Shown here piece by piece: positions 48,606 through 53,532 of a stretch of 64,000 nucleotides of DNA (its first letter is position 1; every line of letters starts with the position of its first letter). The notes below the pieces were generated by a model that saw only the letters and a program-made list of their open reading frames with translations, did no database searches and was not told the DNA's origin. The translations under genes were made by a program, and so were the position numbers. This DNA is from Escherichia coli (GTDB lineage Bacteria > Pseudomonadota > Gammaproteobacteria > Enterobacterales > Enterobacteriaceae): assembly GCF_050920415.1 (NCBI RefSeq), contig NZ_CP169309.1, one strand, 5' to 3'.

Positions 48606-49226
48606 ATGAGGTATATAGTTGCCTTAACGGGAGGCATTGGCAGTGGCAAGAGTACCGTTGCCAATGCGTTTGCTGATCTCGGAATTAACGTCATTGATGC
48701 CGATATTATTGCGCATCAGGTGGTTGAACCAGGTGCACCTGCGCTACATGCAATTGCTGATCACTTTGGCGCTAACATGATTGCTGCTGATGGAACATTG
48801 CAGCGCCGGGCCTTGCGCGAGCGGATTTTCGCCAACCCGGAAGAGAAAAACTGGCTTAACGCCCTGCTGCATCCGCTGATTCAGCAAGAGACGCAACACC
48901 AGATCCAGCAAGCATCTTCCCCCTATGTACTTTGGGTTGTGCCATTGCTGGTAGAAAACTCATTGTATAAAAAAGCGAATCGAGTGCTGGTGGTGGATGT
49001 CAGCCCAGAAACGCAACTTAAACGCACCATGCAGCGCGATGATGTCACTCGCGAGCATGTTGAACAAATTCTTGCTGCTCAGGCAACGCGCGAAGCCCGC
49101 CTTGCCGTGGCAGATGACGTCATTGATAATAACGGCGCACCGGATGCTATCGCATCGGATGTTGCCCGCCTGCACGCACACTATTTGCAGCTTGCGTCGC
49201 AGTTTGTCTCACAGGAAAAACCGTAA
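48606..49226 (+). CDS. coaE: Dephospho-CoA kinase
   Basis: ORF 206 aa; P-loop GGIGSGKST. Confidence 0.95.
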
Positions 49227-49969
49227 TGCAGACCCAGGTCCTTTTTGAACATCCACTAAATGAAAAAATGCGTACATGGCTGCGCATTGAGTTTTTGATT
49301 CAGCAACTCACCGTTAATCTACCCATCGTTGACCACGCTGGCGCGCTGCATTTCTTCCGTAATGTCAGTGAATTACTGGATGTTTTCGAGCGCGGCGAAG
49401 TCCGTACTGAGCTGTTGAAAGAACTTGACCGGCAGCAACGTAAACTCCAGACCTGGATTGGCGTGCCTGGCGTGGACCAGAGCCGTATTGAAGCATTAAT
49501 TCAGCAGTTAAAAGCGGCGGGGAGCGTATTAATTTCCGCGCCGCGTATCGGGCAATTTCTGCGTGAAGATCGTTTGATTGCTCTGGTGCGTCAGCGACTG
49601 AGCATCCCAGGCGGCTGTTGTAGCTTTGATTTACCTACATTGCACATTTGGCTGCATCTACCCCAGGCGCAGCGCGACAGCCAGGTAGAAACCTGGATTG
49701 CCAGCCTGAACCCGCTCAACCAGGCACTTACCATGGTGCTGGATTTAATTCGCCAGTCGGCCCCCTTCCGTAAACAAACCAGCCTGAATGGTTTTTATCA
49801 GGATAACGGTGGCGATGCCGACTTGCTGCGCCTGAATCTGTCGCTCGATTCACAGCTTTATCCGCAAATTTCCGGTCATAAGAGCCGTTTTGCCATTCGT
49901 TTTATGCCGCTGGACAGTGAAAACGGACAGGTACCGGAACGTCTGGATTTCGAACTGGCCTGTTGCTAA
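49226..49969 (+). CDS. zapD: Cell division protein ZapD (FtsZ-associated)
   Basis: ORF 247 aa [24 protein letters not shown]...; start overlaps coaE stop (TAATG). Confidence 0.93.
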
Positions 49970-49978
49970 GGAGTAAAA

Positions 49979-50176
49979 ATGTCAGAAACTATTACGGTGA
50001 ATTGCCCAACCTGCGGGAAAACGGTGGTGTGGGGTGAAATCAGCCCGTTTCGGCCATTTTGTTCCAAACGTTGTCAGCTGATCGACCTCGGAGAATGGGC
50101 TGCTGAAGAAAAACGAATCCCCAGCAGTGGCGATCTTTCCGAAAGCGATGACTGGAGCGAAGAGCCAAAGCAGTGA
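49979..50176 (+). CDS. yacG: DNA gyrase inhibitor YacG (zinc finger)
   Basis: ORF 65 aa; C-x2-C...C-x3-C motif (CPTCGK...CSKRCQ). Confidence 0.93.
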
Positions 50177-50186
50177 CATTTTATCT

Positions 50187-50368
50187 GATGCGACGCTGGC
50201 CTGATAAGACGCGGGCAGCGTCGCATCAGGCATCGTGTGCAAATGTCGGATGCGGCGGGAACGCCTTATCCGACCTGCAAGATCTTTTATATCAACGTGT
50301 TAAAAAATTGTAGGCCTGATAAGACGCGCCAGCGTCGCATCGGGCATCCAGTGTAAATGTTGGATGCC
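50187..50368. repeat. BIME: cluster of 3-4 REP palindromic units
   Basis: Repeated gcctgataagacgcg...cgtcgcatcaggc and gtcggatgcggcg...gccttatccgac units in alternating orientation. Confidence 0.8.
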
Positions 50369-50377
50369 TTAACCGAT

Positions 50378-50767
50378 CTACAGACACTTAAGCTTCGCAA
50401 TTACCGGTTCATTGGCTGGCGGAAAATCATCGGCATTCAGACCAACCAGCGACATCCACTCACCGGGTTGCCCTTCTTTACCCCACGGCTCCCCTTCCCA
50501 GCTTTCGACCAGCCAGAACCACAGAGTTATATGCCTGTCCGGGAATTCATATTCCAGTTTTTCAAATAGCGAAAAATGTTGTGGGGTAATCCCGACTTCT
50601 TCCTGAAGTTCACGCACCACCGCCTGTTCCGGCGTTTCGCCCATTTCAATTTTACCGCCAGGAAACTCCAGTTTATTCGCCATGTGCGCATCTGCGGCGC
50701 GACGGGTTATAAAGATTTCATTGTTCTCGTTGCGAATAATACCTACCGCAATTTGCAGCTTTTTCAT
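50378..50767 (-). CDS. mutT: 8-oxo-dGTP diphosphatase (Nudix hydrolase)
   Basis: ORF 129 aa; Nudix box GGKIEMGETPEQAVVRELQEEVG. Confidence 0.95.
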   Translation of the reverse strand: MKKLQIAVGIIRNENNEIFITRRAADAHMANKLEFPGGKIEMGETPEQAVVRELQEEVGITPQHFSLFEKLEYEFPDRHITLWFWLVESWEGEPWGKEGQPGEWMSLVGLNADDFPPANEPVIAKLKCL

Positions 50768-50781
50768 TGTCTTAAACCTAT

Positions 50782-50809
50782 AAAAAAGGCGCAGAATCCT
50801 GCGCCTTTT
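50782..50809. terminator. Bidirectional rho-independent terminator between secA and mutT
   Basis: aaaaaa-ggcgcag-aatc-ctgcgcc-tttt. Confidence 0.8.
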
Positions 50810-50826
50810 ACTTCAACTGTTAGCTT

Positions 50827-53532
50827 TTATTGCAGGCGACCGTGGCACTGCTTGTATTTTTTACCAGAACCGCACGGGCAAGGATCATTACGTCCAACTT
50901 TGCGTTCACCAGTTTGTGCCGCCAGTGCAGCTGCGGCTGCAGAGTCGTCATCCTGATGGCTAAGCTGCTGCATTTGCGCTAAACGCTCGGCTTCCATACG
51001 ACGCTGTTGTTCCAGCTCCTCAACCTCTTCAGGCATACGTACCTGAACTTTGCTCAGCGTGCTGATAACTTCATATTTCAACGACTCCAGCATCGCTGCA
51101 AACATGGAGAACGATTCACGTTTGTATTCCTGCTTCGGATCTTTCTGTGCATAGCCACGCAGGTGGATACCTTGACGCAGATAATCCATCGCCGCCAGGT
51201 GCTCTTTCCACAGGGAGTCAAGCGTTTGCAGCATGACGCCTTTCTCGAAGTGACGCATCATCTCAGCGCCAACCACTTCTTCTTTACGCTGATACACTTC
51301 GATGGACTGCGCCAGAATACGCTCACGCAGCGTCTCTTCATGCAGTTCTGGCTCTTTGTCCAGCCACTCGGCAATCGGCAAATCGAGGTCGAAATCGTTC
51401 TTCAGACGTTCCTGCAGCCCCGGAATATCCCACATTTCTTCCAGCGACTGCGGCGGAATGTAGGCATCGATGGTCGCTTTGAACACATCTTCACGAATGC
51501 TGTTGATGGTATCGCTCACATCGCTGACATCCAGCAGTTCATTACGCTGGGAGTAAATGGCGCGACGCTGATCGTTAGCCACGTCATCATATTCCAGCAG
51601 TTGCTTACGAATATCGAAGTTACGGCTTTCAACTTTACGCTGAGCGTTGGCAATCGCTTTGGTCACCCACGGGTGCTCGATGGCTTCGCCTGGTTTCATA
51701 CCCAGTTTACGCATCATGCCGGAAACACGGTCAGAAGCAAAAATACGCATCAGCGCATCTTCCATCGACAGGTAGAAACGGGAAGAACCGGCATCCCCCT
51801 GGCGCCCAGAACGACCGCGTAGCTGGTTATCGATACGACGAGATTCGTGACGTTCTGTACCGATGATATGCAGACCACCTGCAGCCAGTACCGCATCGTG
51901 ACGCACCTGCCAGTCGGCTTTGATTTTTTCAATTTGCTCTGCGGTCGGATTTTCCAGCGCGGCAACTTCTGCCTGCCAGCTACCACCGAGCACAATATCT
52001 GTACCACGACCCGCCATGTTAGTCGCGATAGTCACCGCCGCGGGATAACCCGCTTGTGCAACAATCGCTGCTTCGTTAGCGTGGAATTTGGCGTTCAGAA
52101 CGTTGTGTTTGATACCGGCTTTGGTCAGCTCGTTTGACACCAATTCCGATTTTTCGATGGAGATAGTACCCACCAGCACCGGCTGGCCTTTCGCAGTACG
52201 TTCTTTGATATCTTCAATGATCGCCTGAATTTTTTCCGCTTCAGTCATGTAGACCAGGTCCGGCAGATCTTTACGAATCATTGGACGGTTGGTCGGAACA
52301 ACGACGGTATCCAGCTTATAGATGGAGCTGAATTCGAAAGCTTCGGTATCAGCAGTACCGGTCATCCCCGCCAGTTTTTCATACAGACGGAAGTAGTTCT
52401 GGAAGGTGATCGACGCCAGCGTCTGGTTTTCGTTCTGGATCTGTACACCTTCTTTCGCTTCCACTGCCTGATGCAGGCCATCGGACCAACGACGTCCCTG
52501 CATGGTACGACCGGTGTGTTCGTCAACGATGATAACTTCACCATCTTTAACGATGTAGTCGACGTCTCGGGTAAACAGCGCATGAGCGCGCAGCGCCGCC
52601 GTTACGTGGTGCATCAGCATGATGTTGGCCGGAGAGTACAGAGACTCCCCTTCATCCATGATGCCTTCTTTCACCAGCAGTTCTTCAATCAGCACCAGAC
52701 CACGTTCGGTCAGGTTCACCTGGCGAGATTTTTCGTCCACCGAGAAGTGGCCTTCGCCCTGGAAGGTTTCGGAGTCTTCTTTTTCCTGACGGATCAGGTG
52801 CGGAATAATTTTATTCACGCGTTTATACATTTCCGAGCTGTCTTCTGCCGGGCCGGAAATGATCAGCGGTGTACGCGCTTCATCGATCAGGATGGAGTCC
52901 ACTTCGTCCACCAGCGCATAGTGCAGTTTACGCTGTACACGTTCTTCAGGGCTGAACGCCATGTTATCGCGCAGGTAGTCAAAGCCGTATTCGTTGTTCG
53001 TACCGTAAGTGATGTCAGCTGCGTAAGCTTCACGCTTCGCCGGTGCTGGCATGCCCGGCAGGTTGATACCGACAGTCAGGCCAAGGAATTCAAACAGCGG
53101 ACGGTTGTTTTCGGCGTCACGTTGCGCCAGGTAGTCGTTGACGGTAACAACGTGTACGCCCTTACCGGTTAATGCGTTCAGGTAAGCAGGCAGCGTTGCG
53201 GTCAGGGTTTTACCTTCACCGGTACGCATTTCCGCGATGCAGCGTTCGTTAAGAACCATACCGCCGAGTAACTGAACGTCGAAGTGACGCATACCAAAGA
53301 CGCGCTTACTTGCCTCACGCACCACAGCGAAAGCTTCTGGGATCAGATTTTCCAGCACTTCGCCTTTTTCCAGACGTGCACGAAACTCTGCGGTTTTCCC
53401 TTTCAGTTCTTCGTCGGAGAGTTTTTCCATCTCCGGTTCCATGGCATTGATGATGTTGACGACTTTGCGCATCCGGCGCAGGGTGCGATCGTTACGACTA
53501 CCGAAAACTTTAGTTAATAATTTGATTAGCAT
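50827..53532 (-). CDS. secA: Protein translocase ATPase SecA
   Basis: ORF 901 aa [23 protein letters not shown]...; C-terminal zinc-binding [14 protein letters not shown]. Confidence 0.97.

Follow-up and report, generated by a model that had tools for sequence, protein, structure and literature searches.

REP sequences between the convergent genes yacG and mutT of Escherichia coli and the single exact IS621 target that they carry

Introduction

REP sequences, the BIMEs that they form and the targeting of REPs by the insertion sequence IS621 are all previously known, and Choi et al. reportedly located IS621 target sites in REPs in 2003. Ton-Hoang et al. (PMC3333891) distinguish BIME-1, in which a long L linker, frequently with a site for IHF, accompanies Y and Z1, from BIME-2, in which Y and Z2 recur in tandem copies with short linkers, and describe atypical BIMEs as chimeric forms that combine BIME-1 with BIME-2. 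A 77-nt unit of Y, linker and Z2 is also known as naRNA4, and many REPs are transcribed (PMC4550694). Protection of mRNA against 3' exonucleases belongs to classical REP biology (PMC1525189), BIME-2 as a class is bound and cleaved by DNA gyrase in vivo, with an excess of cleavage sites that lie chiefly within the Y REPs (PMC6379681), and according to a rule quoted in PMC12306157, REPs that lie less than 16 nt after a stop codon lower the translation of the upstream gene. For IS621, Durrant et al. 2024 (PMC11208160) gave the natural target as ATCAGGCCTAC with a CT core and found 144 of 173 experimental insertions in REPs.

Here we describe the REP cluster between yacG and mutT in a window of 64,000 nucleotides of E. 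coli DNA (contig NZ_CP169309.1). The spacer is almost certainly an ordinary E. coli BIME, BIME-2 or atypical in kind, with two Z2-Y pairs of which the second is partly decayed. Nearly all E. coli genomes contain the yacG-mutT BIME, which carries little weight as a discovery. The locus is a polymorphic hotspot, with one-unit and two-unit alleles, IS621 in 3.3% of complete genomes and an allele of the window's own found in 1 of 5,426.

Results

The spacer and its neighbouring genes

The window is part of the E. coli chromosome, in reversed orientation relative to K-12. The genes around the spacer are as follows.

48606-49226, plus strand: coaE (list of open reading frames)
49226-49969, plus strand: zapD (list of open reading frames)
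49979-50176, plus strand: yacG, DNA gyrase inhibitor, 65 aa, WP_000005042.1 (open reading frame; RefSeq annotation of a 100% identical sequence)
50378-50767, minus strand: mutT, 8-oxo-dGTP diphosphatase, 129 aa (list of open reading frames; RefSeq annotation)
50827-53532, minus strand: secA (list of open reading frames)

The yacG stop codon is TGA at 50174-50176, and the two convergent genes enclose a spacer of 201 bp (50177-50377), nearly all of which is REP sequence. The operons of K-12 are coaE-zapD-yacG and secM-secA-mutT, and the transcription units here would be the same. The segment 49979-50780 is 100% identical to strain MFDS1022581 (NZ_CP169399.1), where RefSeq names the flanking genes yacG and mutT, and just 93-95% identical to nearly all other complete E. 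coli genomes. The coding parts of yacG and mutT are conserved between strains, and the divergence sits in the spacer. No repeat feature is annotated in the yacG-mutT spacer of the K-12 RefSeq record, our literature search returned no paper on yacG together with IS621 or a BIME, and neither gene is named in the supplements to Durrant et al. 2024 (PMC11208160) or in those to the RepRanger paper. Beyond mutT, the Rfam model of STnc40, a Salmonella sRNA family, matches 50782-50851 on the minus strand with 81.8 bits against a gathering score of 45, and the match spans the end of secA and the hairpin of the secA-mutT spacer.

Arrangement of the REP units

We read the units directly and scored them against the three consensuses for REPs that Durrant et al. 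(PMC11208160) quote, which resolved the following elements.

50185-50200, plus strand: half-Z2 remnant CTGATGCGACGCTGGC, 16/16 to positions 3-18 (the left half) of the Z2 consensus
50198-50231, minus strand: Z2-a REP, 33/36 to the Z2 consensus, with the tail GCTG, not GTAG
50232-50244, no strand: head-to-head linker ATCGTGTGCAAAT, a direct repeat with the linker of the second unit
50245-50278, plus strand: Y-a REP with the tail CTGC, 29/34 to the Y consensus, an inverted repeat
50279-50309, no strand: tail-to-tail linker of 31 nt with 19% G+C and a match to the IHF consensus, TATCAACGTGTTA, at 50290-50302
50310-50345, minus strand: Z2-b REP with GTAG intact, 35/36 to the Z2 consensus
50346-50358, no strand: head-to-head linker ATCCAGTGTAAAT, a direct repeat with the first head-to-head linker
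50359-50381, plus strand: Y'-b, a decayed Y REP that lacks 11 internal nt present in K-12 and has kept no hairpin

The first-pass annotation had seen at least three REP palindromes in alternating orientation filling the 200-bp spacer, and consensus scoring bears this out with three intact REPs and two remnants; the consensus search that it had named as a check gave matches of 33/36, 29/34 and 35/36. The cluster does lie at 50187-50368, where it had been placed, although its true extent is slightly wider, at about 50185-50381. The units follow one another as Z2-Y-Z2-Y' in alternating inverted orientation, with head-to-head linkers of 12-13 nt, and the half-Z2 remnant is exactly complementary to the far arm of Z2-a, with which it forms an inverted repeat and an 18-bp hairpin. 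The GTAG/CTAC tetranucleotide is exact in Z2-b (50310-50313) and Y'-b (50378-50381), changed at one position in Y-a (CTGC) and lost in Z2-a (GCTG). Each of the three intact REPs (Z2-a, Y-a and Z2-b) folds at -17 to -22 kcal/mol. The REPs are extragenic, with just the last 4 nt of Y'-b overlapping mutT. The mutT stop codon (TAG, minus strand) coincides with the CTA (50378-50380) of the Y'-b tail CTAC. Strain CB6837 has GTAC as the tail of its last Y, and the annotation of its mutT (L004 700-1098) gives 132 aa, not 129.

An alternative is that the palindromes arose by chance or that the region codes for the open reading frames 49982..50242 (minus strand) and 50357..50569 (plus strand), both of which do exist in the mechanical list. 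The REP matches are far above chance: the degenerate REP pattern is expected 0.00 times in shuffled windows and the 14-mer GTAGGCCTGATAAG, present in the BIME as a single exact copy at 50310-50323, 0.01 times, and BLAST with the REP consensuses gave E-values down to 1e-13. RNA from the spacer folds with z = -6.9 (plus strand) and z = -6.6 (minus strand) against shuffled sequences. Both reading frames run antisense to the conserved yacG and mutT and are unannotated in RefSeq, and strains differ by indels of 11 to about 115 nt inside these frames. Chance or coding is refuted by the REP-match, annotation and indel tests and can practically be dismissed, so that the earlier view of the two frames as spurious is upheld. 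For annotation, the useful points are that these two frames over the BIME are spurious and that the mutT stop lies inside a REP tail. With an 802-nt query that includes the BIME, the median number of places hit in an E. coli genome is 7, and in the 64-kb window one other locus besides the yacG-mutT spacer bears REPs, namely the gcd-cueO spacer.

Class of the BIME

Classification as BIME-1 (RIP) was considered and rejected. Both Z units of the yacG-mutT BIME are Z2, with the longer Z2 centre GACGCTGGCGCGTC, and BIME-1 requires Z1. A related reading is that this is an element of the RIP or BIME-1 type whose main role is the bending of DNA by IHF on the central linker. The 31-nt linker with 19% G+C holds TATCAACGTGTTA, which fits the IHF consensus WATCAANNNNTTR, and its length and position resemble those of the BIME-1 L linker; moreover, the IHF-like core (TATCAA....TTA) is kept in the alleles of K-12 (TATCAATGAGTTA) and CB6837 while the rest of the linker diverges. 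Against these points, the Z units are Z2, the linker has no match to the L sequence of gcd-cueO or frmA-yaiL, and the IHF consensus is not enriched in the window, with 4 matches against 2.2 expected. We therefore regard a main role in IHF bending as unlikely.

The Rfam model of naRNA4 (RF02564) is passed at 50198-50275 on the minus strand with 73.5 bits against a gathering score of 59.5, and the second Z2-Y unit scores 39 bits, under the threshold. Since the family consists of the Y-linker-Z2 unit and many REPs are transcribed (PMC4550694), the locus might encode a free-standing, HU-binding sRNA of the naRNA4 (CssrE) kind with a part in condensing the nucleoid. The model is in effect that of a BIME-2 unit, however, and any good Y-Z2 pair would pass it; the second unit does not. 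Promoter-like sites number 1 against 1.2 expected, any RNA from the BIME would be the 3' tail of yacG or mutT transcripts, and the nucleoid phenotype belongs to REP325, not to the yacG-mutT locus. A free-standing sRNA is thus very unlikely, and assignment to an ordinary BIME of the BIME-2 or atypical kind is retained.

Hairpins at the 3' ends of yacG and mutT

A scan for intrinsic terminators found none in 50177-50377, which leaves the REP hairpins as the only 3' structures of the two transcripts. In the window allele, an 18-bp hairpin starts 8 nt past the yacG stop codon and the segment folds at -34.9 kcal/mol, whereas in K-12, where the segment folds at -26.7 kcal/mol, the canonical REP stem starts 23 nt past the stop. 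On the other side, an 8-bp hairpin starts 9 nt past the mutT stop and is not significant when taken alone (z = -1.6). REPs are not known to act as more than weak or Rho-assisted terminators. One could read the hairpins as a bidirectional terminator of the intrinsic (Rho-independent) type that serves the convergent transcripts of yacG and mutT, given that G+C-rich stems lie directly past both stop codons and that the spacer has no other terminator. Yet no U-tract follows any stem on either strand, and the empty terminator scan agrees with this; the reading was rejected for want of a T-tract terminator within the spacer, and we hold it to be quite unlikely.

By analogy with described REPs, we infer that protection of mRNA 3' ends is the best-supported role of this BIME: REP hairpins at the 3' ends of both transcripts would block 3'-to-5' exonucleases and so stabilise the upstream mRNA. 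The BIME DNA, with its Y/Z2 pairs, is probably also a preferred site of gyrase, in view of the excess of cleavage sites in the BIME-2 class, and the A+T-rich linker, as a predicted site, may bind IHF. The window allele might in addition lower the output of YacG, as its hairpin begins 8 nt after the stop codon, inside the range of less than 16 nt. The mutT-side hairpin, at 9 nt, falls in this range as well.

The IS621 copy in the gcd-cueO spacer

The first-pass annotation had noted an element of the IS110 family at 21923, which is correct; it is IS621 (98% identity to annotated IS621 copies) and occupies the second REP locus of the window.

21851-21885 and 23201-23227: BIME-1 of gcd-cueO, Y-L-Z1, with Z1 split by IS621
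21925-23202, minus strand: IS621 copy in the Z1 REP of the gcd-cueO BIME-1 (classic Y-L-Z1)

The element is inserted at GTAG^GCCTGATAAG, so that the flanks read cacGTAG, then the element, then AG-GCCTGATAAG (also read AG-GCCTGATAAGCGTAGCG), and the empty gcd-cueO site of K-12 reads GTAGGCCTGATAAGCGTAGCG. Compared with an intact copy, the element has two deletions of 1 nt that break its recombinase gene up into open reading frames of 215 aa and 76 aa, which makes it a pseudogene. IS621 is present at 10 places in the nearest complete genome. On the L linker of gcd-cueO, adjoining the IS621 junction, the Rfam model ES036/CssrF gives a sub-threshold match at 21887-21929 on the plus strand (26.8 bits against 37.6).

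The IS621 target in the yacG-mutT BIME

The 11-nt target ATCAGGCCTAC occurs exactly at 50310-50320 on the minus strand, on the GTAG side of Z2-b, and this is its sole exact copy in the window; within the BIME, no further target was found within 1 mismatch. The earlier statement that these REPs carry the motif targeted by the element accordingly holds for Z2-b and fails for the other REPs. Z2-a reads GCTG-GCCTGAT, in which the core dinucleotide is lost, and is no IS621 target because GCTG replaces GTAG; the Y units differ from the target at 3-4 of its 11 positions. Z2-b (50310-50320) would be a docking site for the bridge-RNA recombinase of IS621, with the bridge RNA pairing with ATCAGGCCTAC and recombination taking place at the CT core. 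Those who apply IS621 bridge recombination in this strain could expect 50310-50320 to be a wild-type off-target or landing site.

A comparison with other genomes had been named as a check on IS insertions at this BIME, and such insertions do exist. In strain War, IS621 lies between yacG and mutT, and of the 5,426 complete E. coli genomes, 181 (3.3%) contain a match that spans a 251-nt query over the War IS621 junction, among them O26:H11 11368, many O103, O113 and environmental strains. The occupied yacG-proximal Z2 in these 181 genomes keeps cacGTAG-GCCTGATAAG, as does the yacG-proximal Z2 of K-12. All listed IS621 junctions at the yacG-mutT BIME are 100% identical, and for this reason the 181 insertions may share one ancestral event. 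The proposal that the REPs of this BIME are potential further integration sites is thus right in that IS621 occupies the BIME elsewhere, but the insertions lie in the yacG-proximal Z2, which is a non-target in this strain. For the window's own site, we used a synthetic junction in which window positions 50200-50313 were joined to the IS621 end (21925-22039), and this query found IS621 at 50313/50314 in 0 of the 5,426 genomes; its best matches, 83-85% identical, were IS621 copies beside other BIMEs, for example frmA-yaiL. About 105 genomes have neither a contiguous yacG-mutT match nor the IS621 left junction (286 genomes without at least 80% coverage, minus the 181), and other insertions or rearrangements at the BIME are possible in these.

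Variation of the spacer between strains

The number of units in a BIME varies between strains (PMC3333891), as is seen at yacG-mutT. Alleles with one Z2-Y unit, for example those of C41, O157:H7 and War, give a match of ~700 bp, and two-unit alleles one of about 802-816 bp. The exact BIME allele of the window was found, at 99% identity or more, in 1 of the 5,426 complete E. coli genomes.

At 50185-50199 the window reads CTGATGCGACGCTGG and K-12 CTGATGCCGCACGTAGG, and the new bases complement the far arm (50216-50229) exactly. By this signature, the change resembles a template switch at a quasi-palindrome. With it, Z2-a loses its GTAG and the 18-bp hairpin arises; the CB6837-type allele has the same change. 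GTAG is needed by IS621 as well as by the REP-associated transposase, RAYT (PMC3333891).

The second Z2 of CB6837 (L004 630-644) reads GTAGATACTGATAAG where the window has GTAGGCCTGATAAG, and this 'GTAGATACTG' allele is present in 267 E. coli genomes. The sequence GTAGATACTGATAAG equals the left junction of IS621, GTAG, plus the first 6 nt of the element (ATACTG), fused to ATAAG, and it is the product expected if an IS621 copy were deleted through CTG microhomology, with one CTG at the IS end and the other in the adjoining GCCTGAT. We raise as a tentative possibility, less likely than not and based on this junction, that IS621 may once have been inserted at the site that is intact in the window and that its imprecise loss left a 3-bp, target-destroying footprint in the allele of the 267 genomes. 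If this is true, the loss of GTAG from Z2-a would be a second erasure of an IS621/RAYT recognition site in the lineage. An un-scarred allele on the CB6837 background was not found; the top match was the scarred allele, at 97.1%. An exact scan for GTAGATACTGATAAGMSKMG (scar plus REP) in 100,044 species-representative genomes, a set that holds one E. coli, returned one chance match in Vibrio. The template-switch-like change that removes GTAG and the possible IS621 scar are new but minor observations.

Comparison with known systems

In the nomenclature of Bachellier and Gilson, the yacG-mutT spacer is most similar to BIME-2 or an atypical BIME. It shares with these the alternating inverted Y and Z2 units in tandem, the short head-to-head linkers, the position between convergent genes and a number of units that varies between strains. 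It departs from BIME-2 in its tail-to-tail linker, which at 31 nt is long, A+T-rich and provided with an IHF-like core, recalling the L linker of BIME-1, and also in that one Y is decayed over the mutT stop and GTAG is gone from Z2-a.

With BIME-1 (RIP; Y-L-Z1, for example gcd-cueO), the locus has in common that Y and Z stand tail-to-tail across a linker of ~31-35 nt with an IHF-like core. In contrast to BIME-1, its Z is Z2, not Z1, and its linker is unlike the conserved L motif at gcd-cueO or frmA-yaiL. The likeness to naRNA4 and REP325 (RF02564; PMC4550694) lies in the same 77-nt Y-linker-Z2 unit, which scores above the family threshold at 50198-50275. REP325 comprises six tandem units between yjdM and yjdN, for which an HU-dependent nucleoid phenotype has been shown, whereas yacG-mutT has two units.

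Relative to occupied IS621 targets, the Z2-b site is empty, the IS621 copy of the window is defective and the natural insertions at the locus use the other Z2. In its sequence, Z2-b is nonetheless like the known REP targets of IS621: ATCAGGCCTAC with its CT core is the same site as that of the occupied Z1 REP at gcd-cueO (21921-21924/23201-23214).
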